Shown here: in pieces, positions 10,500 to 63,848 of the stretch
How the letters are laid out: every line of letters begins with the position of its first letter
Numbering within the stretch: position 1 is the stretch's first letter
The notes under the pieces: generated by a model
Seen by the model: the letters and a program-made list of their open reading frames with translations, nothing else
Told to the model about the DNA's origin: nothing
Databases searched by the model: none
DNA from: a virus
Lineage: Duplodnaviria; Caudoviricetes
Strand: one strand, 5' to 3'
Virus record (IMG/VR): IMGVR_UViG_2974522809_000001
Span: 7,093-71,092 of that record
DNA: 64,000 bases
Program-made: the position numbers and the translations under genes

Positions 10500-10565
10500 G
10501 CGGTAGCGGGGCGGTCCCGCTTGGCTGATGGAAGAACACTAACCCGACTAAGGCGGGTAAGTCAA
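10500..10565 (-). promoter_or_regulatory. Repeat promoter/palindrome/leader cassette, copy 1
   Basis: Minus strand reads TTGACT TACCCGCCTTAGTCGGGT TAGTGT N6 ATCAGCCAAGCGGGACCGCCCCGCTACCGC. Confidence 0.85.
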
Positions 10566-10600
10566 GGATAGAAACACCACCAGCAGATACCCTGACCATC

Positions 10601-11344
10601 GTGGCTTTCACGTGGCCGGTAGACCGGTCTGAGTTCCCGGCCCTGCCGGACGAGGACGACCCTGGATACGCCCAGGCGGTCCTGGAGCAGCGTGCAGCGG
10701 CTGACCTGGCCGTGGCGGTGCTGTGGGCGCTCACCGGCCGTCAGTGGGGCCTCTACGAGCACACCGTGCGCCCGTGCCGGTCTGAGTTCCCCACCTGGCC
10801 GGGGCTGGCCAGCGGCGGCGTCACCAGCTATCTGCTGAGCTGGGAGGGCGACCGGTGGATCGGCTGGAGCTGTGGCTGCGTCGGGGCCTGCAAGGTGTCC
10901 GGCCCGCGCGCTGTCCATCTGCCCGGCCCCGTCCATTCGGTGACCGAAGTCAAGATCGCCGGGGCGGTGATTGCACCGGCCGGGTACGTCGTGGAGAGCA
11001 ACGTGCTCTACCGCGTCGGGGCACCCTGGCCGGTGCAAGACCTTGGACGGCCCATTGGTGAGGCCCGCACCTGGGCGGTGACGTACCTGCGCGGCATCCC
11101 GGTGCCCGAGAGCTTCACCGCGCTGACGGGCCTGCTGGCCAAGGAGTTCCTGGCCGCGCTCGACAACGAGGGCCGGTGCCGCCTGCCGCGCACCGTCACC
11201 ACGGCCAGCCGCCAGGGCGTGACGTACCGTGCCTACGACCCCCAGGTGATCTACGCCAACGGCAAGACCGGCCTGCCCGAAATCGACCTGGTGCTGGCAG
11301 CGGTGAACCCGAACGCGCTCATGTCCGCGCCTACGGTGGTCTGA
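10601..11344 (+). CDS. Head-to-tail adaptor
   Basis: 247 aa. AADLAVAVLWALTGRQWG and CRLP..VT..SRQGV motifs are typical of actinophage adaptors. Confidence 0.7.
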   Translation: MAFTWPVDRSEFPALPDEDDPGYAQAVLEQRAAADLAVAVLWALTGRQWGLYEHTVRPCRSEFPTWPGLASGGVTSYLLSWEGDRWIGWSCGCVGACKVSGPRAVHLPGPVHSVTEVKIAGAVIAPAGYVVESNVLYRVGAPWPVQDLGRPIGEARTWAVTYLRGIPVPESFTALTGLLAKEFLAALDNEGRCRLPRTVTTASRQGVTYRAYDPQVIYANGKTGLPEIDLVLAAVNPNALMSAPTVV

Positions 11345-11874
11345 TGACGCAGCCCTGCCGCACCGACCCGGCCATGGAGGTCATCGGTGCCGTCACCACC
11401 ACGCTGACCGACTTCTTTCGGCCTGACCAGCTGTGCCCGCCCATGGTCGGCGGCACCGCCAACATCCGGTTCTTCGCTGGCGACGGCGCGCCGCTGGCCG
11501 CGTGGGACAGCCACGTCAGCCAGGGCTGCGACCAGCCATTCGTCTGGGTGCGCGCCCAGCGCCGCTACCGCAGCAAGGTGTTCCCGAACCCCACGGTGGA
11601 GGTCGGCAACTGCAAGCTGATCAAGGTCATGCCGGTGGAGGTCGGCGTGGCCTGGTGCGCGGTGGTCGAGCAGGAGCCCAAGTGGTCCGACTACGCCAAA
11701 GAGGCGGCGGTCAGCATGGACACCGCCTGGCGGCTGGAGGAGGCGCTGTGCGCCGCCGCTGCCCAGCTGCTGCGCGACGACAGCGAGCGCCTGGTGGGCA
11801 GCGACATCATCAACCCGTATGGTCCAGAGGGCGGTGTCATCGCCTGGATTGGCACCCTGTACGCCAGCTACTGA
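11344..11874 (+). CDS. Hypothetical head-tail junction protein (MTQPC...)
   Basis: ATG overlaps the upstream TGA, so the start was moved from the ORF-track 11176. 176 aa. Confidence 0.7.
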   Translation: MTQPCRTDPAMEVIGAVTTTLTDFFRPDQLCPPMVGGTANIRFFAGDGAPLAAWDSHVSQGCDQPFVWVRAQRRYRSKVFPNPTVEVGNCKLIKVMPVEVGVAWCAVVEQEPKWSDYAKEAAVSMDTAWRLEEALCAAAAQLLRDDSERLVGSDIINPYGPEGGVIAWIGTLYASY

Positions 11875-11884
11875 GGAGGACACC

Positions 11885-12235
11885 GTGGCACGTGTGACTA
11901 TCGAGGGCAGCCGCCTTTCGCCCAGCACGTTCCTGGCTGCGGGTGAGCGCATCACCGTGCAGCGCACCGAGCGCGTGGAGCGCCTGATCGCCAGCGGCTT
12001 CGTGGTGGAGGTGGCCGACGCGCGTACCGACACCGAGCGCGAGGCCGACGAGCAGGCCGAGCAGTCGCGTACCGACCTGACCCCGTACACCCTGGACAAC
12101 CCGCCCAAGCGCAACGCCAGCCGCGAGGACTGGGCCGAGTTCCTGGCCGCGCACAGCGCCCTGGGCATCACCACCGAGGGCAAGGACCGCGACACGCTCA
12201 TTGCCGAGTGGGACGCCAGTCGCGCTGCTGAGTAG
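11885..12235 (+). CDS. Hypothetical protein with C-terminal HeH/Rho-N-like module
   Basis: GAGGAGG RBS before GTG 11885, 116 aa, ends in ASREDWAEFL...GKDRDTLIAEW. Confidence 0.7.
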   Translation: MARVTIEGSRLSPSTFLAAGERITVQRTERVERLIASGFVVEVADARTDTEREADEQAEQSRTDLTPYTLDNPPKRNASREDWAEFLAAHSALGITTEGKDRDTLIAEWDASRAAE

Positions 12236-12238
12236 CCC

Positions 12239-12652
12239 ATGCCGGTAACCGCGCGCATTCACATCAACGAGCCCGAGCTGGAGCGCCAGACTGGCGCGAT
12301 CTTCCGTGGCAAGCACCGCAGCATCACGCGGCGCATCGCCACGCAGGCCCGCGTGGACGTGCCCGTGCGCACCGGCAACCTGGGCCGGGGCATCCAGGAA
12401 ATGCCCCAGACGTACCGGCCGTATCACGTCGGCGGCGGCGTGGAGGACAACGTGGACTACGCCGCCCCGGTGCATGAGGGCAGCCGCCCGCACCGCATCA
12501 CCGCCAGGCACGCCAGCGCGCTGCACTTCTACTGGCACGGGCGTGAGGTGTTCCGCAAGAGCGTCTGGCACCCCGGCGTCCGGCCCCGGCCATTCCTGCG
12601 CAACGCGGCGCGGCGCGTGGTGGCTGCGGACCCCGACATCCGTATGACGTGA
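12239..12652 (+). CDS. HK97 gp10-like tail completion protein
   Basis: 137 aa with the PVRTGNL and YAAPVHEG motifs. Confidence 0.55.
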   Translation: MPVTARIHINEPELERQTGAIFRGKHRSITRRIATQARVDVPVRTGNLGRGIQEMPQTYRPYHVGGGVEDNVDYAAPVHEGSRPHRITARHASALHFYWHGREVFRKSVWHPGVRPRPFLRNAARRVVAADPDIRMT

Positions 12653-12707
12653 CTATCCCGACATCGGTGGTAGTCTCGCGCCCGAACCCCAAGCCTCGGG
12701 AGGGCCA

Positions 12708-19359: not shown

Positions 19360-19367
19360 GAGGACAC

Positions 19368-20801
19368 GTGGCGTTCCGTGGCTACTTCGCTCTTGACGGG
19401 GTGGAGTTTGCCAACAGCAGCCGCGTGGTGGCCCACATCGGGGCCAACATTCCCACCATGGACCTGGGCCTGCTGGGCGACCCTGGGGACTGCTCGCTGG
19501 TGCCGGTGGCCGGTAGCCCGCTGCTGGCCGAGCTGCCCGCCAGCACAGTGCCCATCGGGCCAGGGCGGCTGCTCGGTACCGTGCCCGACGGCACCCGGCT
19601 GTACGGGCCGGGGCTGGGTCTGGTGGGCGACTGCTGGACGCCGGACACGCTGTGCTTCGGCTGCCGGGAGTCCATCGGCTACGACGACAGCTGGCCTGGC
19701 CTGAGCGACCTGCTGGACCACAGCCTCTACCGGCCCGAGCTGGCACCCTGGTACAGCACGCGCGTGCCCGAGAGCGCCGAGTTCGGCGGCGTCTGGGTCA
19801 TGGACGTGAAGGGCCTGGACACCACGCCCACGCAGCGCGACGTGACCGAGGTGGCCGGTGCCGGTGGCGCACCCGGCCCGCAGCGCAACCCCAGCCGCCA
19901 GGTGACGTTCGACGCGCTGCTGATCGCCTGCACCAACGCGGGCGTGACCTACGGGCTGCAATGGCTCACCTGCCTGCTGCGGGCCACCGACGCCGACGAC
20001 GGCAGCACGCTGCGGTACCTGGCCGCGCACCCCGGCGGCAGCACCGCCGACCCCGTGACCCTCATCCGTGAGGTGCATGGCGTGGTGCTCAGCCAGGAGC
20101 CCCAGGTGCAGGACGCGCAGAACCTGGCGCGCGGCCAGCACAGCCAGGCCACCATCTACCGCGTGCAGTGGACCATGACCGTCACCCGGCCGTACGCCTA
20201 CAGCCCGCCGGTCGACGTGGCGGTGGACTGGGACGAGACCACCCTGGACCCCATCGGGTGGATTCACGGGGCCGACTGCAAGACGCCCGCCAGCTGCGCC
20301 GACATGCCGGTGTTCTTCGCCGAGGGCTGCGACGTGGAGCGTATCGAGGCGGTGACCACGCCGCCGCCGACGTGCGGCGGCTGTATGCCGGTCTGCGCGG
20401 TGCAGACCCGCGTGTTCCAGCTGCCCACGTTCGACAGCCCATACCGCTGCCGCCAGACCGCCGTGACGCTGCGCGTGCGCAACAACAGCGAGGACAACCT
20501 GACGCTCCAGGCGTTCTACCGGCAGCGCAATACCCGCGAGCAGTGCGGCGACCAGCTGTGGCCCATCCAGCTGACCGGCGTCCCCAGCCAGGGTGAAGTG
20601 GTGCTTGACGGCATCAGCGGCCGGTTCTGGCTCCAGTGGGCCGGGCGCAAGCGCCGCCCGTTCAACATGGTCAGCACGCCCAGCGGTGTGCCGTGGCGAC
20701 CGGCCGTCATCGACCGCGACAAGGACTGGGAGCTGGTGATCATCAGCGACGGCGCTGCCACCTTCGACGTAAGCATGAGCCTGGCCGACCGGGAGGTGTG
20801 A
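19368..20801 (+). CDS. Minor tail protein (distal-tail-like)
   Basis: 477 aa, AGGAGG RBS, first gene after the tape measure. Confidence 0.75.
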   Translation: MAFRGYFALDGVEFANSSRVVAHIGANIPTMDLGLLGDPGDCSLVPVAGSPLLAELPASTVPIGPGRLLGTVPDGTRLYGPGLGLVGDCWTPDTLCFGCRESIGYDDSWPGLSDLLDHSLYRPELAPWYSTRVPESAEFGGVWVMDVKGLDTTPTQRDVTEVAGAGGAPGPQRNPSRQVTFDALLIACTNAGVTYGLQWLTCLLRATDADDGSTLRYLAAHPGGSTADPVTLIREVHGVVLSQEPQVQDAQNLARGQHSQATIYRVQWTMTVTRPYAYSPPVDVAVDWDETTLDPIGWIHGADCKTPASCADMPVFFAEGCDVERIEAVTTPPPTCGGCMPVCAVQTRVFQLPTFDSPYRCRQTAVTLRVRNNSEDNLTLQAFYRQRNTREQCGDQLWPIQLTGVPSQGEVVLDGISGRFWLQWAGRKRRPFNMVSTPSGVPWRPAVIDRDKDWELVIISDGAATFDVSMSLADREV

Positions 20802-21879: not shown

Positions 21880-24173
21880 CCGCACTGCTGGCACCGGGAC
21901 GCACTCCGCAGAACGACGCCGAGCTGGCCCGCAGTTTCCACGACAGGCTGCGCAAGCTGGAGACCGCCAGCACAGTGCGCGTCGGCCCGTGGGTGCTGTC
22001 CAACGACCCGGCCACCGGCAACCTGCGCGCCACCCGGCCCGGCCAGACCGTCGTCATTGACGAGTCGGGCAGCACCGAGGTACTGGACGCCGCCAGCCTG
22101 AACCTGTCCGGCTACGTGACGGACAAAGAGCTGGTAGACGCCCTGAGCCAGATCGACACGGGCGGCTCGCTGGAGTCGATGTGGTCGGACCTCTACACCG
22201 CGCTCACCGGCCTGCTGAACCCGGTCAACGCGCTCCAGGCCCTGGCGAACTTCTTCAAGGTGGAGCTGGGCAGCCCCATCACCAGCAACCGGCTGCCGCT
22301 CATCCCGCTGAGCCACATCCGGCCGGTGAATCCGAACCTGCTGCTCGACGGCAGTTTCGATGACGAGGCCACGCTGTCGGGCTTTCCCGATTGGGACTAC
22401 GACGAGGCCGACGGCCGCAGCCGCCCCGGCAGCGCCTACACCATGGCCGACGGGCTCACGCACACCATCCGCAGCAATGCGGTGGAGGTCGAGGCCGACG
22501 ACGAGCTGGACGCCGAGGTCTACGCCAAGTGGGTGGGCCTGGTGGTCAGCGCCGCCACGCCTATCCAGCTGGCCATTGCCAGCTACGACGAGAACGACGT
22601 GCTCATCGGCGGCGCGCCTGCCGTGGTGGCCAGCGCCGGGGCGGCGGGTAACAGCGGTGGGACGGGCGGCTGGGGCACCAAGCTGAGCGTGACCGGCTGG
22701 TCACCGCCTGCGAACGCCAAGTACGTCGTCGTGGAGCTGACGGTGACCACGGGCGCAACCGGCGGCACCGTCAAGTACGACGACGCCGCCCTGCGAAAGA
22801 CCGGCACCCTGCCGCAGAGCTACATCAACGGGCTGGTCGACGCGCTGCAAGGGCTGTGGAACGGCGTGCAGGCCCGCATTGACGACTTCATGGACCTGCT
22901 CGATGCGTTCGGCGGGTTCGTCATCGGAAGCGGCCAGGGCCAGCTCACCGACGTGATTACCCGGCTCCAGGCGCTCAACCCGCTGACCGGTGTGTTCGAC
23001 GCCAGCAAGCTGGGCAACCTGGCCAACATCCCGGCCATCGGCCAGGACAAGATCATCGGCCTGGTGGACGACCTGGCCGACGCCGTGGCCAACGGCGGGC
23101 AGACCGTCCGCAATGCGATCGTGCAGGCGCTGACGGGTGCGGTGCCGCCGGGCGGCGCGACCGACGCCAACGTCATCAGCGCGCTGACCAGCATCCCGGC
23201 CACGCTGGTGCAGTCGGCCGTGGAGGGCGCGAGCAGCATTGACGACGCCATCCAGCAGGCGCTGAACGCCGTGGTGCAGGGTGCCAGCGGCGTGCTGAGC
23301 GCGCCGGGCACGTTCGTGGACATCATCAACCAGCTGGCCGGTATGCGGAACAGCACCGCAGGCGCGAACGCGGCGGTGGTCAACCTCCAGGCGCAGGTGG
23401 CTGGGCTGGACCCGGCGGCGTCGTCCGAGGTGATCAACTTCGGCGAGTTCGCCAACGCGGGCGCACCGCCCAGTATGTTCACCAAGTTCTCCGACAACGG
23501 CAGCGGCACGCTCATCACCAGCAACGGCCAGCTCGCCTGGGACAGCGCCAACGCTGGCCGCGAGCTGTATCTGTTCAACGGTGGCCCGCTCCAGACAGAC
23601 CTCTTCGAGGTCAGCGTGGTGCTGCCGCAGGTGCCGACGCACGGCTGGTTCGGCGCGGACAGCTCGAACTACATCTGGCTCATCGGCCGGTCGAACGCGG
23701 GAAGCACCGCGCTGGTGGCGGCGCGCCTGGCCTGGGACGAGATTCGTCTGTACAACCTGGCGGGCGGCACGTTCACGCAGTTCGGCCCCACCATCAGCGA
23801 AAGCGACATCCTCACCGCCGGGTGCTCGGTGAGCTTCAAGGGCGGCACCGTGGCCGAGCCCCGGTACTTCCACGTGGCTATCAACGGCACCAAGAAGCTG
23901 GTCTACACCGACGGCAGCGCAGGCGCGCCGGTCACGGTGCTGGGGTCTGATTACCGGAACTGCGGCATGGGCGTGGAGAAGGGCAGCAGCTACCTCACCG
24001 GCACCATCAGCACCTGGTCGATGTACGACGGCGGCAGCAGCGCCGGGTCGGGCGTGGTGGCCGGTTACACCGCCGCTGGCCTGACCAACCTGAACCTCTG
24101 GAAGGGCACCGCCGCGCAGTACGCCGCCATCGCCACCAAGAACGCCAACACCATCTACGTGGTGAAGAACTGA
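21876..24173 (+). CDS. Minor tail protein (fibre/receptor-binding)
   Basis: 765 aa with a carbohydrate-binding-like module (NLLLDGSFD) and a C-terminal WKGTAAQYAAI...TIYVV motif. Confidence 0.75.
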   Translation: MTALLAPGRTPQNDAELARSFHDRLRKLETASTVRVGPWVLSNDPATGNLRATRPGQTVVIDESGSTEVLDAASLNLSGYVTDKELVDALSQIDTGGSLESMWSDLYTALTGLLNPVNALQALANFFKVELGSPITSNRLPLIPLSHIRPVNPNLLLDGSFDDEATLSGFPDWDYDEADGRSRPGSAYTMADGLTHTIRSNAVEVEADDELDAEVYAKWVGLVVSAATPIQLAIASYDENDVLIGGAPAVVASAGAAGNSGGTGGWGTKLSVTGWSPPANAKYVVVELTVTTGATGGTVKYDDAALRKTGTLPQSYINGLVDALQGLWNGVQARIDDFMDLLDAFGGFVIGSGQGQLTDVITRLQALNPLTGVFDASKLGNLANIPAIGQDKIIGLVDDLADAVANGGQTVRNAIVQALTGAVPPGGATDANVISALTSIPATLVQSAVEGASSIDDAIQQALNAVVQGASGVLSAPGTFVDIINQLAGMRNSTAGANAAVVNLQAQVAGLDPAASSEVINFGEFANAGAPPSMFTKFSDNGSGTLITSNGQLAWDSANAGRELYLFNGGPLQTDLFEVSVVLPQVPTHGWFGADSSNYIWLIGRSNAGSTALVAARLAWDEIRLYNLAGGTFTQFGPTISESDILTAGCSVSFKGGTVAEPRYFHVAINGTKKLVYTDGSAGAPVTVLGSDYRNCGMGVEKGSSYLTGTISTWSMYDGGSSAGSGVVAGYTAAGLTNLNLWKGTAAQYAAIATKNANTIYVVKN

Positions 24174-31722: not shown

Positions 31723-31902
31723 TTCCCGGCTGTCTCGGTAGCGCAGCCACGACCAGCCCCCGACCAGCGCCGCGCCTGCGGCGGCACTGATACCGGGGTG
31801 CGGGTTCGTGTTGAAGAACGACACGGCAAGCAACAGCACACCTGTTCCACCCATGAGGGCGACAGTAACGGGTCGGCTGTACCGGCGCGCGTGCCGCGAC
31901 AT
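31627..31902 (-). CDS. Small membrane protein (MSRHARR...)
   Basis: ATG overlaps the upstream TAA and there are two hydrophobic segments. It overlaps the 3' end of the + strand gene by about 95 nt, so it is less certain. Confidence 0.45.
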   Translation of the reverse strand: MSRHARRYSRPVTVALMGGTGVLLLAVSFFNTNPHPGISAAAGAALVGGWSWLRYRDSRELASVKVIQRRAEPARAKELLGPFHEHAHRAV

Positions 31903-32108
31903 TACCGACCGCCCCACCAGCCACGGCCGGGGCGCTCGGCGTGCCAAGCGTCGATGGTCTCCGGCAGCCAGCCCTTGTGACGGCCCACCTCCACATCATG
32001 CGGCGGCAGGTCGATGCCGGACAAGGACCGGACGGACTTCATGCCCAGGCGCTTGGCCACGTCCTGGCGGCTGAGATACTTCTGCACCTTGCGCTCAGTG
32101 GTGGTCAC
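31902..32108 (-). CDS. Excisionase/MerR-like HTH DNA-binding protein
   Basis: 68 aa, YLSRQDVAKRLG...W..ETIDAW pattern, AAAGGAG RBS. Confidence 0.75.
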   Translation of the reverse strand: MTTTERKVQKYLSRQDVAKRLGMKSVRSLSGIDLPPHDVEVGRHKGWLPETIDAWHAERPGRGWWGGR

Positions 32109-32530
32109 CGGACGCTCCTTTCACGGGCTGTGGAGTTCCCCGACAGCGTAAGGGTTATCCGTGGCAGCTCGGGGTCACCGGCAACGATCACGGCGGCGCG
32201 TCCTGCCACCAGACGCTCCCATTCCCACTGGCCACCGGTCTCCACAGCAATGTTGACCTCGCGGTCTGGGTCGGCTTCTGCGGCGTCGATCACACGGGCC
32301 ACGTGGTCATCGAACTGGTCAACCAGCTCCTCCACCTTGGTCAGCATCCCCGGCGGGCACTTGTCCGCGCCGCTCTCGATGCGCTGGTAGTCGCGCCGGG
32401 GCTTGCCCAGCTTGAGCGCCATGCTGCGCTGGTCCAGCCCGATGTAGAGCCGGTAGTTGCGGATCAGCTCGCCCAGCCCGTAGGTGTGCTCCGTGGGCTG
32501 CGGGGCTGTAGGCAGCTCGGTCATCGTCAT
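32105..32530 (-). CDS. XRE-family HTH DNA-binding protein
   Basis: GAAAGGA RBS then ATG 32530, 141 aa, LIRNYRLYIGLDQRSMALKLG...YQRIESG. Confidence 0.8.
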   Translation of the reverse strand: MTMTELPTAPQPTEHTYGLGELIRNYRLYIGLDQRSMALKLGKPRRDYQRIESGADKCPPGMLTKVEELVDQFDDHVARVIDAAEADPDREVNIAVETGGQWEWERLVAGRAAVIVAGDPELPRITLTLSGNSTARERSVR

Positions 32531-33332: not shown

Positions 33333-33347
33333 GGTGACTCCTTGGTC

Positions 33348-33413
33348 GCGGCGGCGGGGCTGTCCCGCCTGGCTGATACGACCACACTAACCCGACTAAG
33401 GCGGGTAAGTCAA
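33348..33413 (-). promoter_or_regulatory. Repeat promoter/palindrome/leader cassette, copy 2
   Basis: ACACTAACCCGACTAAGGCGGGTAAGTCAA at 33384-33413 on +, with the leader hairpin. Confidence 0.85.
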
Positions 33414-49547: not shown

Positions 49548-49587
49548 CGCCCCAGACTAGCCCGTCAATGTCGGTGGTGTGGCCTCT

Positions 49588-49623
49588 CGCGCGCGCGTGC
49601 GCGCGTGCGTACACGTGCGCGCG
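49588..49623. repeat. 36-bp uninterrupted alternating purine/pyrimidine tract
   Basis: CGCGCGCGCGTGCGCGCGTGCGTACACGTGCGCGCG. Confidence 0.85.
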
Positions 49624-49631
49624 GGCGCGTC

Positions 49632-49661
49632 AGCGTACCGGATCGACCCCCGAAAAGTCAA
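49632..49661 (-). promoter_or_regulatory. Leftward SigA-like promoter
   Basis: Minus strand reads TTGACT-18 nt-TACGCT. Confidence 0.65.
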
Positions 49662-49877: not shown

Positions 49878-49906
49878 TTGGCGGCAGAGTGTTTTAGGGT
49901 TAGTGT
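49878..49906 (+). promoter_or_regulatory. Rightward promoter for a leaderless gene
   Basis: TTGGCG-17 nt-TAGTGT, then 7 nt to ATG 49914. Shares GGGTTAGTGT with the cassette. Confidence 0.6.
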
Positions 49907-49913
49907 GAATGCC

Positions 49914-50687
49914 ATGACCACAACCACACGCAAGACCACGAAGAAGGCGCAGCCGCCCAAGGGCGACGTGCGTAGTGAAACGCTGGCGCAGTTCAACCGC
50001 GAGCTGATCGAGTACGGGGGCTATGACCCTGGGTTCGACGGGCTGGTGGAGAAGCTGTACGCCACCAGAGAGGCCATCCGGCAGCTGGCCGGTGCACGCA
50101 AGAATCTGTTTGAGCACATCAAGGGCTATCACCGGGGTGCCGACGTAGCCGTGCCGGGGACGGAGTACGTGGTGCGCCAGACCGAAGCAGGACCAGCCAC
50201 CACGTACCGGGCGGTGAGCAGTGCCGCCGCCAAGAAGGCCGACCCGGCTGCCTGGCGGCGCGCGCAGGTGCTGACCGGGTTCGTGCAGGTGAAGGCCCCG
50301 GCGGCGGTGGCTGCGGCGGTGCCGGTGGAGGATGTACCGGCGCTGTGCCATCTGGACAAGGGCGTCGGGCTCACCGAGGCGGTGGCGGCGTACAAGGATG
50401 CTCCGGCCTGGGCCAGGCTCAAGGAGCTGCGGGCAGTGGAATCCGAAACGCTCGGGCGGCTGGAGAAGCTGGCAGCGGAGTTCGGCTGGGACGGTGACCT
50501 GAAGGTGTTCGCCGACGGGTGGTCGGTCCAGCTCAAGCGTGTGCAGTACAGCAGTGACGCGCTGGCCGTGGTGGACCCCGAGCTGTTCGACCGGCTGGCC
50601 GAGGTGAAGCTGCGGCAGGCCAGCCCCAGGGTGTACGTCGGCAAGCCAGGTGACATCGACGGTGCCGAGGACGCCGACGCCGACTAG
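49914..50687 (+). CDS. Hypothetical protein
   Basis: 257 aa from ATG 49914, first gene of the rightward block. Confidence 0.7.
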   Translation: MTTTTRKTTKKAQPPKGDVRSETLAQFNRELIEYGGYDPGFDGLVEKLYATREAIRQLAGARKNLFEHIKGYHRGADVAVPGTEYVVRQTEAGPATTYRAVSSAAAKKADPAAWRRAQVLTGFVQVKAPAAVAAAVPVEDVPALCHLDKGVGLTEAVAAYKDAPAWARLKELRAVESETLGRLEKLAAEFGWDGDLKVFADGWSVQLKRVQYSSDALAVVDPELFDRLAEVKLRQASPRVYVGKPGDIDGAEDADAD

Positions 50688-50776: not shown

Positions 50777-51046
50777 ATGGTACGCATAAAACCGCGTGGG
50801 CCGGGTCGCCCGAAGGGGCCAGACAAGTTGCTGGTGCCCGTGAAAATGTTGCCTGACCAGCGCAGACGCTTCAAGGCCATGTGTGCCGCGCGGGACATGA
50901 CTTACGAGGAAATGATCATCGCGTGGATGGATAAAGAGGACGCTTTGGAGCGCCGAAAAGCCGCACAGCAAAAACACCCGCTTCACCAGCCAAAACAGGC
51001 CAGTTTCTACCCAGGAGGAGGGCAGCGTGTCCAGCCCAGACAGTGA
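50777..51046 (+). CDS. Ribbon-helix-helix-like DNA-binding protein
   Basis: 89 aa. GRPKG, then a LLVPVKM strand, RRRFKAMCAARDMTYEEMI helices. Confidence 0.65.
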   Translation: MVRIKPRGPGRPKGPDKLLVPVKMLPDQRRRFKAMCAARDMTYEEMIIAWMDKEDALERRKAAQQKHPLHQPKQASFYPGGGQRVQPRQ

Positions 51047-54557: not shown

Positions 54558-54730
54558 GCGCTCATCCGCAGCCGGATTTCGTGCCGCACCAGCGTGCGCT
54601 GGCTGGCATGGCTGCCGAACGTGTTCGACCGGGCGCACATTTCCAGCTCGTCCAGCAGCTGCTCGTCGGTCATGTCGATCAGGCTGGCCTGGTAGGCGTC
54701 GATGTCGGCTTGGGTGACCATGCGCTCCAT
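54554..54730 (-). CDS. 58-aa protein not in the ORF track (MERMVTQADIDAYQ...)
   Basis: GAGGAG RBS, directly downstream of cassette copy 4, GC3-rich codons. Confidence 0.75.
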   Translation of the reverse strand: MERMVTQADIDAYQASLIDMTDEQLLDELEMCARSNTFGSHASQRTLVRHEIRLRMSA

Positions 54731-54747
54731 GTGAGGCTCCTCTGTTC

Positions 54748-54813
54748 GCGGCGGCGGGGCTGTCCCGCGTGGCTGATGGAATCAGACTAACCCGACTAAG
54801 ACGGGTAAGTCAA
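54748..54813 (-). promoter_or_regulatory. Repeat promoter/palindrome/leader cassette, copy 4
   Basis: AGACTAACCCGACTAAGACGGGTAAGTCAA at 54784-54813, with the leader. Confidence 0.85.
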
Positions 54814-56193: not shown

Positions 56194-56471
56194 CGGTACC
56201 GGCTTCCAGGCACCGGGTCATGGCCGGGATGGCTGGCTTGCACTGCCCAATCGCACACCGCGCACGGCTGATGTCGGCCCTGGCCGGTCTGGTCCTTGAT
56301 CATCAGCACCCACTGGTCACCGGCAGCGCGCACCCGCATGGAGAGGAGCGCGTGCTTGCCCTCCTTGGGCCGGGGCATGATCAGATTCCTGTTCGGCACC
56401 CCGATGGCCGCGCCGTGGCGCAGCTCGTAGTCCCTGATCTGCTGGTGCTGGCGTTCGCCCAGGGTGCTCAT
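56190..56471 (-). CDS. Hypothetical protein (MSTLGERQ...)
   Basis: ATGA overlap, 93 aa. Confidence 0.6.
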   Translation of the reverse strand: MSTLGERQHQQIRDYELRHGAAIGVPNRNLIMPRPKEGKHALLSMRVRAAGDQWVLMIKDQTGQGRHQPCAVCDWAVQASHPGHDPVPGSRYR

Positions 56472-56614
56472 GCTTCGTCCTTCTCCCAGTCGTCCAGAAT
56501 GGCGTTGATCCTGTTCAGCGGCACCACCAGCGCGCTGCCGTACTCGGCGCACAGCTCGCGGATACGGGCCAGCGCCAGCCGGTCGGGCGGCAGGGAAAAC
56601 GGGTCGCCGTTCAC
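56468..56614 (-). CDS. 48-aa hypothetical protein (MNGDPFSLPP...)
   Basis: GTGA overlap. Confidence 0.55.
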   Translation of the reverse strand: MNGDPFSLPPDRLALARIRELCAEYGSALVVPLNRINAILDDWEKDEA

Positions 56615-56940
56615 AGCTGGCCTCGCTTCACACGGGCGTCCACGCTGGCGCACCAGGCATAGTGCGGCTCGTCGGTGCGGGTCCGGCAGCAGGCCCGCAG
56701 GGCGCTGTGTGCGGCGTCGGTGGGCACCGGGGCACCGCACTTCACGCAGCTGGGCCAGCCGAACCCGCCGCTCGGGTCGGCGTAGTAGTGCTGGCAGGCG
56801 TCACGGTCTGACAGCGCGGGCAGCTCCTGGTCGGCCAGCAGCCGGTTACGCAGGATGATGCGGGCGTACCGGGCCACCTCGGGCTTCTGCTGGTTGATCA
56901 GGCCCATGCAGGCCTCGGCAACCTCAGCGGGTGTCATCAC
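56611..56940 (-). CDS. Cys-rich hypothetical protein
   Basis: GTGA overlap, 109 aa. Confidence 0.6.
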   Translation of the reverse strand: MMTPAEVAEACMGLINQQKPEVARYARIILRNRLLADQELPALSDRDACQHYYADPSGGFGWPSCVKCGAPVPTDAAHSALRACCRTRTDEPHYAWCASVDARVKRGQL

Positions 56941-57098
56941 GGCCGGTCGTCCCATCCGTTGCGCATCCCGCTGATGGCGCACAGCTGGCCGCTCTCGGGG
57001 TCGTTGTGGTCGGTGTAGACGCGCTGGCCCTCGTCGTCGCGGGCGATGTTCACGTCTTGCAGGCAGGCCGGGCACCACCAGGTGCCCTCGCCGGTCAC
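56937..57098 (-). CDS. 53-aa CxxC protein not in the ORF track (MTGEGTWWCPAC...)
   Basis: GTGA overlaps on both sides, GAGG RBS. Confidence 0.6.
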   Translation of the reverse strand: MTGEGTWWCPACLQDVNIARDDEGQRVYTDHNDPESGQLCAISGMRNGWDDRP

Positions 57099-57586
57099 AA
57101 TGTCCTCACAATGGCTGTGATTGTGGCCCCAGCCTGGAAGTTCTCACGCCAACCGTGATACTCCAGCAGCGCGCCCAGGTCGTCCAGAATCACGAACCGA
57201 TCGCTGGCCAGGCCCACGTGCACGTCGCCCACCAGGGGCCGGTCCAGGGTGGTCTCGGCCAGGGTCACGTGGTCGGTGTGGCAGGGCCTCCACGGTGCCC
57301 ACCAGGGGCGCGCGTTCACGGCCATCACCAGGGCCACCATGGCGGTGCCCGGCGCGACCTCGGTGGTGGGGTCCACGGCTGCCGGTGCGGTGGCCAGGGC
57401 GCGTTCGCGGTTGACCCGCTCCCAGTGCAGCAGCCATACGCGGACGATCAGCCCCAACGCCACGCCCAGGGCGGCGTCACGCCAGCTCCACTGCCAGCCC
57501 AGCAGCAGGTCCAGCCCGTAGGCAATGCCCATGCACACCGGGATGACCACGAACCACCAGGTCAGCCAGTCTCTCAGGGTCGCCAT
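57095..57586 (-). CDS. Membrane protein
   Basis: 163 aa with two N-terminal TM segments. Confidence 0.65.
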   Translation of the reverse strand: MATLRDWLTWWFVVIPVCMGIAYGLDLLLGWQWSWRDAALGVALGLIVRVWLLHWERVNRERALATAPAAVDPTTEVAPGTAMVALVMAVNARPWWAPWRPCHTDHVTLAETTLDRPLVGDVHVGLASDRFVILDDLGALLEYHGWRENFQAGATITAIVRTL

Positions 57587-57720
57587 GGTTCGGCACCGCC
57601 TCCCGTGCTCACGTTGTGGTCAAAGCACCAGCCATAGCGCCAGTGGCAGGTCGGCCCGCACGGCAGCAGGCCCACGGCACGCATCAGGTCGGCCAGTTCG
57701 CGCTTGGTCATGTCGTCCAT
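57574..57720 (-). CDS. 48-aa Cys-rich protein not in the ORF track (MDDMTKRELAD...)
   Basis: ATG overlaps the upstream TGA, GGAGGG RBS. Confidence 0.55.
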   Translation of the reverse strand: MDDMTKRELADLMRAVGLLPCGPTCHWRYGWCFDHNVSTGGGAEPWRP

Positions 57721-58043
57721 CAGTTGCCCTCCAGCTTCTTGCGCAGCTCGGCCAGGTCGGCATCGTCCAGAGGCGGCACCACCGGCTCCAGGATCAGCGG
57801 CAGCGCCACGTCATGCGTGTTGCACCAGACCGCGACCGGCCCCGGCCCGGCGTAATCGAACATCAGGCGGCAACCCAGCTGGGCGTGGACGCCGACCTCG
57901 GGGTTCATCACCGGCAGCCAGCCGTTCTCCGGCCGGGCCTCGGGCTCGCTGGTCAGGTGCTGCGCGATGTTCTCCAGCGCAGTCACCGCGCGCTTGGCCA
58001 GCGTCATGGCGTCACGGGTGGGGCCGGGCAGCAGGTTAACCAT
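57720..58043 (-). CDS. Hypothetical protein
   Basis: 107 aa, GAAAGGA RBS. Confidence 0.7.
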   Translation of the reverse strand: MVNLLPGPTRDAMTLAKRAVTALENIAQHLTSEPEARPENGWLPVMNPEVGVHAQLGCRLMFDYAGPGPVAVWCNTHDVALPLILEPVVPPLDDADLAELRKKLEGN

Positions 58044-58314
58044 GGTCAGGGCGTCCTTTCGTGGTGAGCGGCAGGCCCGCTCGGCGTAGGTGGGCTATGG
58101 CGTTCTTGAGGCTGCGCGGGTCGCTGGGCGTGCCGGGCAGCGTGGTGGTCAGCGCCCCGCCGACGTACACCTTGAAGTGCCCTCGGCAGTGCTTCACCTC
58201 CCCGCCGACGGCCAGCACCGCCGCCACCAGTGCGCGCACCTCGGTGTTGGTGCCGCCAGTACGGCGTCGGCCGCAGCCGGGCACCGGTTTGCCGGATTGC
58301 TGTTGCGTGGCCAC
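58036..58314 (-). CDS. HicA-like toxin / dsRBD-fold protein
   Basis: 92 aa, G.....GHFKVY..G...TLPGTPSD.RSLKN...LRR pattern, AAAGGAGG RBS. Confidence 0.7.
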   Translation of the reverse strand: MATQQQSGKPVPGCGRRRTGGTNTEVRALVAAVLAVGGEVKHCRGHFKVYVGGALTTTLPGTPSDPRSLKNAIAHLRRAGLPLTTKGRPDHG

Positions 58315-58330
58315 GGTGGGCCTCCTTTCT

Positions 58331-58355
58331 GGTGGGCCGGGCCTTCCGGCCCACC
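58331..58355. other. Perfect 10-bp hairpin directly upstream of the HicA-like RBS
   Basis: GGTGGGCCGG-gcctt-CCGGCCCACC. Confidence 0.7.
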
Positions 58356-58365
58356 GGGGCGGTGC

Positions 58366-58668
58366 TCAGTGCTTGATCTGGGGAACCTCGTCGGTGTGAC
58401 CGTTGACGTAGTTGGTCACGCGGATCACGTCCATGCCGTCGGCCATGTCCAGGTTGAACACCGCCACCCGGCCCTTGAGCCCGTCGACCGGGATTTCCAC
58501 GTCGGCGTAGCGGCCGAGCGCTACGTGGTGCGCCAGGTGGTCCCAGGTCACCTGGCCCAGGTCGGCCTGGGCTTCGATCATGCCGTCGAGCATGTCAGCG
58601 CCCTTGACCCCGCGATCTTCGAGCATGTCGATGACCTGGCCCTTGGTGACGATGACGATGGTGGACAT
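58366..58668 (-). CDS. Hypothetical protein (MSTIVIVTKG...)
   Basis: AAGGAG RBS, 100 aa, first gene after cassette copy 5. Confidence 0.75.
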   Translation of the reverse strand: MSTIVIVTKGQVIDMLEDRGVKGADMLDGMIEAQADLGQVTWDHLAHHVALGRYADVEIPVDGLKGRVAVFNLDMADGMDVIRVTNYVNGHTDEVPQIKH

Positions 58669-58685
58669 TTCTGGTCTCCTTACCT

Positions 58686-58751
58686 GCGGCGGCGGGGCTG
58701 TCCCGCCTGGCTGATGTAAGAACACTAACCCGACTAAGGCGGGTAAGTCAA
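58686..58751 (-). promoter_or_regulatory. Repeat promoter/palindrome/leader cassette, copy 5
   Basis: Exact 30-mer at 58722-58751, with the leader. Confidence 0.85.
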
Positions 58752-58918
58752 GCGTTTCTAGCTGGCAATTTGGCCGAATGTCTGCGCACCATGCCGTTCG
58801 CCTTCTCTGCGAACCGACGCCCGCAGGCGGCGCAGTAGGCGTGACCGCGAAAGGTGCGGGCCGGGGCCTTGTCAGACCCCGAGCACCGCACCCTCTGCTC
58901 AGCGGTGGTCGCCTGCAT
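58748..58918 (-). CDS. 56-aa Zn-finger-like protein not in the ORF track
   Basis: MQATTAEQRVRCSGSDKAPARTFRGHAYCAACGRRFAEKANGMVRRHSAKLPARNA. Its TGA lies inside the TTGACT -35 box. Confidence 0.55.
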   Translation of the reverse strand: MQATTAEQRVRCSGSDKAPARTFRGHAYCAACGRRFAEKANGMVRRHSAKLPARNA

Positions 58919-60514: not shown

Positions 60515-61573
60515 TTACACCGGCAGCAGCGCGCTGAACGCCTTGGCCTTCATGTCGCCCAGGTCGTTGCTCATCAGGGTGCGCTGCGCCCGCTTGATGG
60601 CTGCCTCCTCGCCCTCGGCCTTGGCGGCGGCACCGGCCAGCGGTGCCACATGGTCCAGGTACTCGGTCACCGCGTTGTACACCCCGAACGCCGTGCCACG
60701 GAACGGGGCCACGGTCTCGGCGGTGCGGTACAGGTCAACCACCTCGGCGGCGCGCAGCTTGCGGCTCTCGGCCTGCTTCTCGGTGGTGGCACCCGGCACG
60801 TTCCAGATGTCCTCCAGCACCTCGATGACCTGCACGGGCGTCATCTCCCGCTTGATCAGCTTCTCCACCTGCTCCACGAACGTGTCGCGGTACTGGAAGG
60901 TCAGCCCCAGCAGCTGGCGAATCTCGGCCAGGCGCTTGTCCGGCGTGCCGGTGTGGCGCAGGGTAGCGGTGCTGCGGGCGGCGCTCTCGGCCATGCGCTG
61001 CGTGTTGGCGCACACGATGCGCACCGGGGCGATGAGCGCGCGGAGCGGGGCCTGGCCGGTGTGGTTGTTCAGGACGCTGATGTACAGGTCCGTCACGTCC
61101 AGCTCACCGGTCACCGGGCTGCGAAACTCCATGTGGCTGGGCAGCTTCATGGTGACGAAGGTGTCCCGCCCGCCGCGCAGTGCGCCGATGGTCTCGATGT
61201 GTGCGCCGCCCTCGTCCACGATCTGGTTCAGCAGCTCGGTGGTCTGCTCGTTCTGGAACGGGGTCCAGCGGTTGCCGACCACGCCCAGCGCCTCGGTGCC
61301 GCCGTTGATCGGGTTCGTGCGGAGCACGACGTTGCGATCCGGCACGGTCAGGCTCAGGGTGCCCTCGCCGGTCTGGTCGGGCACCTCGGCGGTCAGGGGC
61401 ATGGTGCGCACGTCCCAGCCGCGCATGTGGGCGGCGTCCAGGGCCTCGTCCACCGTCATGGTGTGGCCGACGGGCGTGCCCAGCTTGTGCCAGGCGTCCA
61501 CCCGTCCGCTGGCGTCCACTCGGCTGTCGGCAAAGCTGGTGACGCCATCGGTGGTGTCGAGTTCGTGGGCCAT
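60515..61573 (-). CDS. DUF932-family phage/plasmid-like protein (TIGR03299-like)
   Basis: 352 aa with AWHKLGT, W..FQN, ET.G.L.GG..F, N.H.G, P.R..CANT, and GTA.G.YNAVTEY.DH motifs. Confidence 0.8.
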   Translation of the reverse strand: MAHELDTTDGVTSFADSRVDASGRVDAWHKLGTPVGHTMTVDEALDAAHMRGWDVRTMPLTAEVPDQTGEGTLSLTVPDRNVVLRTNPINGGTEALGVVGNRWTPFQNEQTTELLNQIVDEGGAHIETIGALRGGRDTFVTMKLPSHMEFRSPVTGELDVTDLYISVLNNHTGQAPLRALIAPVRIVCANTQRMAESAARSTATLRHTGTPDKRLAEIRQLLGLTFQYRDTFVEQVEKLIKREMTPVQVIEVLEDIWNVPGATTEKQAESRKLRAAEVVDLYRTAETVAPFRGTAFGVYNAVTEYLDHVAPLAGAAAKAEGEEAAIKRAQRTLMSNDLGDMKAKAFSALLPV

Positions 61574-61596
61574 GGTGTCCTCCTTGGTAGTGGTTG

Positions 61597-61656
61597 GCGG
61601 GGCGGTCCCGCCTGTCTGATACGTTCACACTAACCCGACTAAGGCGGGTAAGTCAA
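61597..61656 (-). promoter_or_regulatory. Repeat promoter/palindrome/leader cassette, copy 6
   Basis: Exact 30-mer at 61627-61656, with the leader. Confidence 0.85.
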
Positions 61657-61677
61657 GCGCTTCTAGCAGGCAATTTG

Positions 61678-61833
61678 TCAGAAACTGCCCATGAGATAGC
61701 CCACCGGGATGGCCAGGGCGCACGTCACCGTGAGCACCGCGCACACCAGCTCGGTCAGGGTGTCCTGCTTGGCGTAGTGCAGGCCCACGCAGGCCAGCAG
61801 GCCCACGCACACGATGATCAGCTGGAGGATCAC
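61678..61833 (-). CDS. 51-aa two-TM membrane protein (MILQLIIVC...)
   Basis: GTGA overlap, GGGAGG RBS, two hydrophobic segments. Confidence 0.65.
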   Translation of the reverse strand: MILQLIIVCVGLLACVGLHYAKQDTLTELVCAVLTVTCALAIPVGYLMGSF

Positions 61834-62674: not shown

Positions 62675-62895
62675 GCGCGGGCCTCCCGTCGTGCGGCCCA
62701 GTAGGCGGCGTTCTCGCCCAGCTCAAAGTCCACAATGCGGCTGGCCAGCGCCCAGTCCGCAGCCTCGGCGTCCAGGGTGTTCTCCAGCGAGCTGGTGATG
62801 CCCTGGCCGGTGCGGCAGGTGGCGTCGTGGTCGTTGACGTAGCCGTCGCAGTCCTCGCAGGTGGGCGGCTCGATGATGTCGGCGGGGTCGTACAT
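62671..62895 (-). CDS. Small CxxC..H..C protein
   Basis: 74 aa, GAAAGGA RBS, first gene after cassette copy 7. Confidence 0.75.
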   Translation of the reverse strand: MYDPADIIEPPTCEDCDGYVNDHDATCRTGQGITSSLENTLDAEAADWALASRIVDFELGENAAYWAARREARA

Positions 62896-62907
62896 GTCGA
62901 TCCTTTC

Positions 62908-62973
62908 GCGGTAGCGGGGCTGTCCCGCTTGGCTGATATAGGAACACTAACCCGACTAAGGCGGGTAAGTCAA
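62908..62973 (-). promoter_or_regulatory. Repeat promoter/palindrome/leader cassette, copy 7
   Basis: Exact 30-mer at 62944-62973, with the leader. Confidence 0.85.
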
Positions 62974-63009
62974 GGGCCAGGACCAGGCAATTTGCCCGGC
63001 CCTGGCCCT
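62973..63009 (-). terminator. Hairpin abutting the -35 of cassette copy 7
   Basis: Minus strand AGGGCCAGG-G-CCGGGCA-AAT-TGCCTGG-T-CCTGGCCCT, just after the TAA of 63017-63763. Confidence 0.7.
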
Positions 63010-63016
63010 CGGGTGG

Positions 63017-63763
63017 TTACGCCTTGGCCTTGGCAGCCTTGCGGGCGGCGTCACCGGGGCGGGGCTTGCGGCCACCGGGGTTCGCGCTGGTGGGCACGTG
63101 CTGGAGCCACTTGCCGACCGCCTCGTTGGCCTCTGCGGCGTCCAAGCCCTCCGGCAGGGTGATGGTGCCGTCGGCCAGCGCTGCGTTCACCAGAGCGACG
63201 ATCTGGTCACCAAGCGCCTGCTTCTTGCTCACGCGCTTGGCCGGTGCCTCGGTGACCTCGGTGACCTCGGGGGCCGGGGCCATCGCCTCGACGGTCTCGG
63301 CGTCGGTGACGGGCTCGTCCACCTCGGGCTCGGGGTCGGCGGGCACCTCGGGGAGGATGTCGGCCAGCGCGTCGGCTGCGGACTCGTAGACGGTGACGTT
63401 GGACTTGATCGCCTTGCCCTTGCTGGCCTTCTTCGGGGCCTTGGCCTTGGGCGCGTTCTTGGCCTCGATCAGCGCGTTGATGGCCTCTTCCTGCCAGCCC
63501 TTGTCGGCGGGGAAGTCACCGACGTTGGCCACACCCTGCACGCTGGTGGGCACGGCGGGCACCACGTTGGACTCCCACCCCTTCTCGGCGAAGTGCGCGC
63601 CCACCTTGCCGCTGCGGGCCTTCTCGGCGGCGGCAGCGGACTTGTGCCAGCTGTAGGCCGAGTTGTTGACCATCAGCACGTGGGTGTAGGGCATGGTCGG
63701 GCTGGTGCGGGTGAAGGTTTTGCCGTTGTCGGCGGTGGCGGTGAAGGTAACGGTTGCGGCCAT
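63017..63763 (-). CDS. Hypothetical protein (Ala/Lys/Glu-rich), likely highly expressed early gene
   Basis: 248 aa, AAAGGAG RBS, strong codon bias, first gene after cassette copy 8. Confidence 0.8.
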   Translation of the reverse strand: MAATVTFTATADNGKTFTRTSPTMPYTHVLMVNNSAYSWHKSAAAAEKARSGKVGAHFAEKGWESNVVPAVPTSVQGVANVGDFPADKGWQEEAINALIEAKNAPKAKAPKKASKGKAIKSNVTVYESAADALADILPEVPADPEPEVDEPVTDAETVEAMAPAPEVTEVTEAPAKRVSKKQALGDQIVALVNAALADGTITLPEGLDAAEANEAVGKWLQHVPTSANPGGRKPRPGDAARKAAKAKA

Positions 63764-63782
63764 TTTGGCTCTCCTTTGATCT

Positions 63783-63848
63783 GCGGTAGCGGGGCGGTCC
63801 CGCTTGGCTGATACAGGAACACTAACCCGACTTAGGCGGGCAAGTCAA
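63783..63848 (-). promoter_or_regulatory. Repeat promoter/palindrome/leader cassette, copy 8 (variant)
   Basis: ACACTAACCCGACTTAGGCGGGCAAGTCAA at 63819-63848, with the leader and an AT-rich upstream segment. Confidence 0.85.

Follow-up and report, generated by a model that had tools for sequence, protein, structure and literature searches.

Introduction

In the Cluster A mycobacteriophages L5 and Bxb1, one repressor silences many genomic sites, among them an early promoter that faces leftward at the right end. These stoperators are asymmetric, 13-14 bp long, located mostly in transcribed regions and oriented with transcription, and the phages that carry them are temperate, with an immunity repressor. 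The Streptomyces phage phiC31, also temperate, has a conserved inverted repeat of 17 bp at many early promoters, which do not resemble the SigA consensus, and these repeats are bound by one phage repressor. In MerR-type promoters, such as merT, soxS, copA and bmr, a dyad centred in a spacer of 19-20 bp touches both hexamers. Here we describe a promoter-like cassette, present in eight copies on the minus strand of a mycobacteriophage genome, in which a 15-bp dyad (CCCG-N7-CGGG) lies between the -35 and -10 hexamers. The stretch analysed, called the window, comprises 64,000 nucleotides, bases 7093-71092 of the 71,092-bp genome of a subcluster B4 mycobacteriophage (Coopervirus); all positions below follow the window numbering.

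The cassette resembles the Cluster A arrangement in having many sites across the genome and one proposed phage repressor, but its dyads are confined to promoters and occur elsewhere at chance level. In phiC31 the repeats are placed differently from the cassette dyad. The likeness to MerR-type promoters lies in a dyad that is centred in the spacer and touches the hexamers, together with a MerR-superfamily winged helix-turn-helix (wHTH) protein encoded nearby, whereas the cassette spacer measures 16-18 bp and that protein has neither the coiled-coil dimerisation helix nor an effector domain. The nearest mycobacteriophage precedent is the dyad repeat of Cluster O, where about 31 copies of TGTTCGG-N3-CCGAACA, a 17-bp dyad with 7-bp arms and a 3-bp centre, were described separately from SigA-like promoters (PMC6439249). 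The present dyad, in contrast, has 4-5-bp arms around a 7-bp centre and occurs essentially only in promoter spacers, one per promoter.

A further precedent is Aca2, a dimeric autorepressor whose promoter repeat IR1 'directly block[s] the -35 and -10', while a second repeat, IR2, with the same 4-nt core and a different spacing, lies in the 5' untranslated region (UTR) (PMC6765145). Aca2 also binds 5' UTR hairpins and thereby blocks translation; up to three operons can share its motif pair, and an actinobacterial RNA motif exists (PMC13551039). The unit compared with the present cassettes is acrIF8-aca2 of phage ZF40.

Eight probable promoters with a dyad in the spacer

A pattern search for TTGACT-N18-TAGTNT finds eight copies in the window, all on the minus strand, as an earlier note on this DNA had reported (Table 1). 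The number expected by shuffling is 0.00, no shuffle reached eight, and a search of the whole 71,092-bp genome returned no ninth copy. Five of the eight 30-mers are identical, and the remaining copies differ at 2-3 positions. The arms CCCG-N7-CGGG are kept in 8/8 spacers; substitutions fall mainly in the central 7-mer, the 63819 copy has a further one at spacer position 8, and the fifth -10 base also varies. In 8/9 arm pairs the dyad extends to ACTTACCCG-N7-CGGGTTAGT. Across the window, CCCG-N7-CGGG occurs at 15 sites against 8.2 expected; eight of the 15 lie in cassettes, and the other seven are at about chance level (~8 expected), which rules out a stoperator-like dispersal.

Every copy stands on the coding strand in front of the gene that opens a leftward block, where an intergenic gap precedes the block. 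All eight pair TTGACT with TAGT(G/C/T)T at 18 bp, the form of a SigA-type promoter (a -35 near TTGACA and a TANNNT hexamer 16-19 bp apart). An E. coli-style promoter scanner misses these promoters because TAGTGT matches TATAAT at 3/6 positions. Nine B4-type phages and two metagenomic contigs contributed 63 phage/site instances, which gave 56 unique sequences for the calculation of information content. This content is about zero from -45 to -1, jumps to near maximum at the first T of TTGACT, and stays near maximal through the last T of the -10, dipping only at the dyad centre. It then falls in the six bases past the -10 and recovers at ATCAG; in 7/8 copies the first base of this renewed conservation is an A located exactly 7 nt past the -10, SigA-dependent starts being expected at 6-8 nt. 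As sequence logic, these boundaries match a promoter with a predicted +1 at the A of ATCAG. With conservation that starts exactly at the -35, a variable discriminator and a conserved +1 region, the eight 30-mers are very probably promoters, as the earlier note had proposed, and the dyad within them is probably a protein site.

The whole cassette spans about 85 bp and runs from the -35 through the 15-bp dyad, the -10, a 6-nt discriminator, ATCAG, a GC hairpin and a Shine-Dalgarno (SD) sequence to the ATG. A common leader is present in 7/8 cassettes, where the 30-mer and six variable bases are followed by ATCAGCCARGCGGGACMGCCCCGCYRCCGC, about ten bases, the SD and the ATG; the one copy without it is the helicase cassette. 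The predicted +1 lies 42-49 nt before the ATG, or 93 nt at the helicase, and near-identity of the copies within the genome spans about 65 bp. Counted from the 30-mer, the ATG comes at +48 to +55 nt, or at +99 for the helicase. Upstream of the -35, nothing is shared in the aligned flanks save a loose CAAATTGCC in three copies. This element, CAAATTGCC(A/T)G, lies 10-20 nt 5' of the -35 (58752-58775, 61657-61680 and 62974-62997, minus strand); Vincenzo, Cooper and metagenomic relatives have it too.

The leader is predicted to fold into a 6-bp GC stem (GGCGGG/CCCGCC) with a 5-nt loop at +9 to +25 (GGCGGGAC.GCCCCGCC). The hairpin sequence (G/A)GCGGGAC(A/C)GCCCCGC(C/T) covers seven transcripts, all on the minus strand, and its closing pair is A-U in three copies, G-C in three and a mismatch in one, an A-U/G-C covariation. 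The form GGCGGGA..CCCGCC is kept in every lineage compared, including B2 and the Gordonia phage, so that the leader hairpin is conserved more widely than the spacer dyad. Because the leader loops vary from 3 to 6 nt, an RNA hairpin is favoured over a second double-stranded operator. Its stem is the same 6-bp duplex as one dyad half-site (CCCGCC/GGCGGG). No U-tract was found after the hairpin in any of the copies, and no Rfam-type RNA family reached the gathering threshold across the window, the matches at E<=10 on one cassette being noise.

Conservation across Cluster B and orientation of the dyad

The motif scan of related genomes that the earlier note had called for finds the dyad-in-promoter layout throughout Cluster B, so it is not peculiar to the source phage. 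The B4 form in the window is TTGACT-TA-CCCG-N7-CGGG-T-TAGTGT (8 copies). Its counterparts are TTGACT-TA-CCCG-N7-CGGG-TAACTT in Vincenzo (7 copies), TTGACA-NN-CCCG-N7-CGGG-TAAGTT in B1 (Kikipoo; 8 copies, the outer arm base degenerate in some), TTGACA-AT-CCCG-N7-YGG-TATTGT in B3 (Phaedrus; 12 copies) and TAGACT-T(A/T)-CCCG-N7-CGGG-TAATAT in B5 (Acadian; 5-6 copies). In Vincenzo, B1, B3 and B5, the layout is thus a -35, 2 nt, CCCG-N7-CGG(G), 0-1 nt and TANNNT, and the spacer measures 18 bp in B4, 17 bp in B1 and B5, and 16 bp in B3. The B2 form (Qyrzula), GAGACA-AYGCCGCC-N9-TAATGT, occurs in at least 6 copies, and the dyad is absent.

Beyond Cluster B, the cassettes of the syntenic Gordonia phage MakoManhole carry a different spacer, and the helicase promoter of this phage reads TTGCTA-AAC-CCCG-ACTCACT-CGGG-TATAAC. 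Vincenzo, B1, B5 and MakoManhole all keep the dyad at their orthologous helicase promoters, and the promoter of the HTH operon itself retains CCCG-N7-CGG(G) in about 20 lineages. Divergent metagenomic contigs retain TTGACTT(A/C)CCCG..CGGGTTAGT with unrelated centres. Since the arms outlast changes in the hexamers, centre and flanks, copying within the genome is insufficient as an explanation.

The orientation of the dyad also varies. Its two common centres are exact reverse complements of each other (CCTTAGT and ACTAAGG), and among 75 promoter-context instances positions 5 and 11 are linked (C..T in 38, A..G in 26 and hybrids in 5; Fisher P 1e-13, a value that overstates independence because the instances are related). 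Five different centres were seen in both orientations. At the orthologous site of the HTH operon, form 1 is present in four phages and form 2 in five, and a flip alters three non-arm positions only. Because the dyad flips at orthologous sites, its function would be independent of orientation, as expected for a dimer. The pattern fits a symmetric binder and not asymmetric contacts of RNA polymerase, and the flips are probably inversions at the inverted repeat. The extended arms ACTTACCCG/CGGGTWAGT are perfect in two B1 copies. Co-variation of the outer arms (ACTTA/TAAGT, ACAAT/ATTGT, ACAAC/GTTGT) was not relied on, being inconsistent among B1 and B2 copies and overlapping the hexamers.

The earlier note had read the spacer dyad as a regulatory site. 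That reading gains from the retention of the arms in B1, B3, B4, B5 and the Gordonia phage while the hexamers and centre diverge, and from the flips; a protein-bound dyad is probable. The shared leader, the extended arms, the Cluster-B-wide motif and the two reverse-complement dyad forms in relatives go beyond what that note described.

Candidate regulator proteins

Two helix-turn-helix (HTH) proteins are encoded in the operon that cassette 7 heads. The larger, of the XRE type, has a weak Pfam match to HTH_31/HTH_3, falls in PHROG 955, and carries an HTH that is related in sequence to the 434 repressor. Its structural model (predicted local distance difference test, pLDDT, 83.5) shows the full-length Aca2/YdiL fold with both domains. 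Comparison with Aca2 of phage ZF40 (7vjo) gave a VIA Z of 10.6 and a root-mean-square deviation of 2.7 Å over 103 of 117 residues; the YdiL/SO3848-type structures 2ox6 and 1s4k reach Z 10.0-10.7, and HTH-only matches Z ~6. Foldseek matches have E 7e-3 and TM 0.5-0.64. A search of the PDB by sequence with this protein returned no Aca2 chain. The putative recognition helix, RRDYQRIE, goes with the dyad in all lineages examined. The helix is altered in B2 (RRSYQRIE), B3 (VRTYQRVE) and the Gordonia phage (AQHVKKIE), and in these altered-helix lineages the cassette dyad is absent or altered.

The resemblance to the Aca2 unit extends to the layout of the sites. Besides the combination of an XRE HTH with a C-terminal dimerisation domain, at the level of fold only, both systems place inside the core promoter an inverted repeat whose core is 4 nt long and whose centre is N6-N8, and the promoter of the regulator's own operon carries the repeat (cassette 7; about 20 lineages). 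In both, a structured RNA or second repeat follows directly after the (here predicted) transcription start site (TSS), adjoins the ribosome-binding site and keeps a fixed distance to the start codon, and the RNA stem resembles the DNA half-site. The regulator lies within the regulated operon, and one regulator is predicted for several operons. The differences are equally clear: the cassette core is CCCG/CGGG and that of Aca2 is TTCG/CGAA; the arms of the cassette leader stand in inverse order to the promoter dyad; a Cluster B genome would have 7-12 operons, whereas up to three are reported for Aca2; and the XRE protein has no DUF1870 sequence membership. Moreover, no known acr gene lies downstream of the cassettes, where the genes encode DUF932, DUF7280, DUF7185 and a zinc-binding domain, and the phage seems lytic. 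A literature search found no published link between Aca2 and mycobacteriophages.

The smaller protein, a MerR/excisionase-type wHTH, is conserved better than any other in the region: B4 is 87-92% identical to B1 and Vincenzo in this protein, and 40-60% identical in most other proteins. Its model consists of the wHTH only (pLDDT 73), and its fold matches, weak but concordant, are RacA, NmlR, BmrR, BldC and RdfS (E 0.1-1, TM ~0.5), reaching the DNA-binding domains of the MerR superfamily only. A sequence search of the PDB gave no real match. The helix KSVRSLSG of this protein survives in the Gordonia phage and is disrupted in B2. The C-terminal tail RPGRGWWGGR is invariant in all homologs, including those of Gordonia phages, and is modelled at low confidence.

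Since very few independent contrasts are available, the profiles of helix and dyad cannot decide between the two proteins. A third possible binder, a ribbon-helix-helix protein (50828-51046), is less likely because it is absent from B3, which has the dyad. The gp40-like HTH gene matched 486 phage records, mostly of Cluster B type. In Arthrobacter phage Jamun the wHTH has a different recognition helix, and promoter dyads are absent. This unrelated temperate phage carries an upstream module of about 60 bp (…AATACACGCCTAACCGTGCTAAACTTAGAGAGTCAGCAAGG…) three times, before three leftward genes (~20340-20450, 22440-22550 and 23005-23115).

Feedback repression and its alternatives

The reading we favour is that SigA-type early promoters are under feedback repression at the spacer dyad, and to this chain as a whole we assign a probability of about 45%. 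The eight 30-mers would be host-SigA-type promoters, each heading a leftward transcription unit: the four right-arm small-gene blocks, the 58-aa gene, the helicase/RecB unit, the DUF7185 gene and the two-HTH operon. The 15-bp dyad, filling the spacer and reaching both hexamers with its extended arms, would serve as operator for a dimeric phage-encoded protein from the cassette 7 operon. Once accumulated, the regulator would occupy the core promoters and lower all units together, its own operon included, as an early shut-off. As binder we prefer the 141-aa Aca2-fold XRE protein, which, by analogy with Aca2, may also bind the leader RNA hairpin and damp translation; the 68-aa MerR-like wHTH would be an alternative binder or a partner. 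Repression is favoured over activation because a promoter with a strong -35 and a TANNNT hexamer 16-18 bp away should work unaided and the regulator genes lie behind such a promoter, and feedback repression in particular because the dyad site covers the core promoter. An extended form, with one Aca2-fold HTH protein running a two-level regulon (promoter occlusion plus RNA hairpin) of 7-12 promoters in Cluster B and related Gordonia phages, is more doubtful.

Several observations weigh against this reading. Every dyad joins one CCCGCC to one CCCGAC half-site and is never symmetric, which a simple homodimer leaves unexplained. In the leader stem the arms run CGGG..CCCG, opposite to their order in the spacer dyad, and the two elements therefore cannot count as equivalent DNA sites. 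No DUF1870 match at E<=1 was found in 13 homologs of the XRE protein, only HTH_31, HTH_3 and HTH_19, and its relationship to Aca2 therefore holds at the level of fold only. The association of helix with dyad amounts to about three independent contrasts confounded by phylogeny, and the IMG/VR search for regulator/operator pairs was biased to the RDYQRIE helix. In B2 the helix differs by D to S alone, yet the dyad is lost; the Gordonia phage, with another XRE helix, still has the helicase-promoter dyad, which fits the small wHTH better. The near-identity of copies within the genome could partly stem from gene conversion. A search for published binding, TSS or expression data on Cluster B phages found none.

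The dyad could instead be a positive-control site, where the MerR-like wHTH (or the XRE protein) activates by remodelling the spacer or through the loading of a factor onto RNA polymerase, a mechanism exemplified by lambda Q and AlpA, with the leader hairpin as a signal that is read through. We regard such activation as unlikely. It draws on the hallmark MerR-type layout of a dyad centred between the hexamers, on the MerR-superfamily DNA-binding domains that are the best fold matches of the wHTH, and on this protein being by far the most conserved of the region (87-92% for B4 against B1 and Vincenzo), with KSVRSLSG kept in the Gordonia phage that has the helicase-promoter dyad and disrupted in dyad-less B2. 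The -35-like hexamers are weak in B5 (TAGACT) and B2 (GAGACA), and extra dyads occupy the place of a missing -35 at the putative lysA and gp58 promoters. However, MerR-type activation needs spacers of 19-20 bp, against 16-18 bp here, the 68-aa protein lacks the MerR dimerisation helix and its fold matches are weak (E 0.1-1), the leader hairpin has no U-tract terminator, and the activator gene would depend on a promoter that needs that activator. Comparable odds attach to an account with no dedicated trans factor, in which a strong promoter-leader module was copied and homogenised by recombination or gene conversion, the dyad being an intrinsic spacer feature or a by-product, with the flips arising from the way short inverted repeats mutate. 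This would suit the near-identity of the copies within the genome over ~65 bp, the copy that travels with an inserted moron-like gene, the tolerance of both orientations with a flip touching three non-arm positions, the often degenerate outer arm base of B1, and the other conserved, dyad-free spacer of B2. But homogenisation cannot explain the survival of the arms between subclusters and in the Gordonia phage; conversion tracts are not what preserves them, because the discriminator inside the cassette varies freely; and no requirement of RNA polymerase for CCCG..CGGG within a spacer is known.

A host protein is a considerably less probable binder. On that account the dyad is the target of a Mycobacterium or Gordonia DNA-binding protein that the phage promoters either make use of or escape, which would agree with the same arms recurring in phages whose candidate regulators differ 40-60%, and across two host genera. 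Yet B2 phages, with the same host, lack the dyad, and phage HTH genes are located in the regulated operon. Least probable of all is that the dyad serves read-through transcripts as a terminator or processing site, in the form of a hairpin (RNA or single-strand). The blocks do lie in tandem on one strand, and a simple scanner flagged one copy as terminator-like, its -10 giving a T-rich tail, but the dyad hairpin has only 4-5 bp (-5.7 kcal/mol), the tail differs among copies, one-sided changes in the B1 arm are uncompensated, and there is no Rfam match. As an intrinsic terminator or processing hairpin, the dyad is ruled out by that fold and the variable tails.

Genomic context and other promoters

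The gene map was built by comparison with the Heath annotation. Most of the right arm is 94-99% identical to the B4 phages Heath, Hydro, Magpie and others, and identity to Cooper and Nigel is lower, at about 81-84%. Structural genes run rightward up to ~31.7 kb and are followed by the three-gene leftward operon (31.9-33.3 kb), the rightward lysA and lysB, and a long replication block that runs leftward (36.6-49.5 kb). The block at 49.9-54.6 kb is rightward, and beyond it leftward small-gene blocks extend up to the right end. Neither an immunity repressor nor an integrase is evident, and the phage seems lytic. Table 1 lists the cassettes with the genes that they head, the two extra dyads and the two candidate regulators.

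Table 1. Cassettes, extra dyads and candidate regulator genes (window positions; +1 sites and hairpins are predicted)
Feature	Position	Strand	30-mer	Dyad	+1	Hairpin	ATG	Context
Cassette 1	63763-63848	-	63819-63848	63826-63840 (CCCGCCTAAGTCGGG)	63812	63788-63804	63763	Right genome end; heads 248-aa gene 63017-63763 (Heath gp91 homolog; PHROG 5873, function unassigned)
Cassette 2	62895-62973	-	62944-62973	62951-62965	62937	62913-62929	62895	Heads gp90-87-like block; first gene 74 aa with mycobacteriophage zinc-binding domain
Cassette 3	61573-61656	-	61627-61656	61634-61648	61620	61596-61612	61573	Heads block; first gene a 352-aa DUF932 protein
Cassette 4	58668-58751	-	58722-58751	58729-58743	58715	58691-58707	58668	Heads block; first gene a 100-aa DUF7280 protein
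Cassette 5	54730-54813	-	54784-54813	54791-54805 (CCCGTCTTAGTCGGG)	54777	54753-54769	54730	-10 TAGTCT; heads lone 58-aa gene, convergent with rightward operon
Cassette 6 (helicase promoter)	40317-40446	-	40417-40446	40424-40438 (CCCGCAATAGTCGGG)			40317	-10 TAGTTT; heads DNA helicase, then RecB-like nuclease and gp44-like gene
Cassette 7	33332-33413	-	33384-33413	33391-33405	33377	33353-33369	33332	Heads operon: DUF6011 protein, 141-aa XRE/Aca2-fold HTH, 68-aa wHTH
Cassette 8	10481-10565	-	10536-10565	10543-10557	10529	10505-10521	10481	Heads 85-aa DUF7185 gene, 10224-10481
Extra dyad, lysA side	33415-33429	+		33415-33429 (CCCGACATTAACGGG)				1 nt outside the -35 of cassette 7
Extra dyad, gp58 side	49561-49575	-		49561-49575 (ACCGACATTGACGGG)				1 nt 5' of TAGTCT-N6-ATG of gp58-like gene (start 49547)
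Candidate regulator, XRE	32105-32530	-						141 aa; XRE-type HTH and C-terminal dimerisation-type domain
Candidate regulator, wHTH	31902-32108	-						68 aa; MerR/excisionase-type wHTH

Cassette 6 differs from the others in its leader, 93 nt of separate sequence that lacks an SD and folds into a long hairpin (-38.9 kcal/mol; z = -4.3). Past the hairpin, this leader (40318-40416, minus strand) continues as a C/A-rich stretch without an SD before the ATG, and the hairpin is kept with compensating changes in Cooper, Nigel and Vincenzo. Cassette 8 and its DUF7185 gene form an insertion of about 450 bp relative to Heath (10152-10600), between the major tail and head-to-tail adaptor genes; facing backward inside the late operon, the unit is moron-like. 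Similar units were seen in ChrisnMich, Adawi and Vincenzo. Within the cassette 4 block, about 2.2 kb of small leftward open reading frames (56310-58510) are not found in Heath, one example of gene flux inside a cassette-bounded block.

The extra dyads stand at putative promoters of another type. The lysA-side dyad lies 18 nt 5' of TACCAT-N6-GTG (lysA start 33460), where it occupies the -35 position; its conservation extends to Cooper, ChrisnMich, JAMaL and Adawi, though not to Nigel or Stinger. The gp58-like gene is the first of the DNA polymerase/primase block, and its dyad matches that of lysA at 13/15 positions (common form CCGACATTRACGGGC). Because their -10-like hexamers lie 6 nt before the start codons, both promoters look leaderless and without a -35; dyads at such putative promoters would fit a dual repressor/activator.

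The earlier note had one phage protein switching off all early promoters together. The word 'all' is too strong: the DNA polymerase/primase block and the rightward gp59-71 block are both headed by a divergent control region (49.55-49.91 kb) whose promoters are of other kinds. Upstream of the polymerase/primase block (49547) lie TTGACT-18-TACGCT, an alternating purine/pyrimidine tract and TAGTCT-N6-ATG. The tract of alternating CG/CA/TG (49588-49640) stands directly 3' of TTGACT-18-TACGCT (~49632-49661, minus strand), and this promoter with a CGCGCGCGCGTGAGG-like tract recurs at the divergent control region of Vincenzo, B1, B2 and B3. The rightward gp59-like block starts at ~49905-49914 behind GGGTTAGTGT (49897-49916, plus strand), which has the right half of the cassette, no left arm and no TTGACT. 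An in-frame ATG 7 nt past the hexamer makes this block possibly leaderless, and the gp59 start annotated in Heath corresponds to a GTG within the hexamer.

Significance

Operator-in-promoter control by a phage HTH protein is a known kind of regulation; what would be new here is its whole-genome scale and the Aca2-like layout of two elements. A search for published accounts of the promoter family, the leader, B4 promoters, the regulator or a Cluster B transcriptome found none; a B1 preprint mentions merely many strong predicted promoters in the right arm. The paper on Alexphander gp94 was set aside, as it concerns a different, temperate phage.

Cluster B is among the largest sequenced groups of mycobacteriophages, and its gene expression is essentially unstudied. 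If the favoured reading is true, it would supply a ready-made map of transcription units, a switch that can be tested and for which two proteins are candidates, a means of telling which unknown genes share early expression, and a compact, strong promoter-operator-leader module usable for mycobacterial genetics. The orientation flips appear to offer a clean natural experiment, in which the dyad works either way round. Under the two-level regulon, these flips would be neutral inversions that a symmetric binder tolerates, and dozens of unassigned right-arm genes would form a co-ordinately timed early set, possibly with anti-defence roles. The link to the Aca2 fold would extend dual control of DNA and RNA by an HTH protein from single anti-CRISPR operons to a whole-phage programme.

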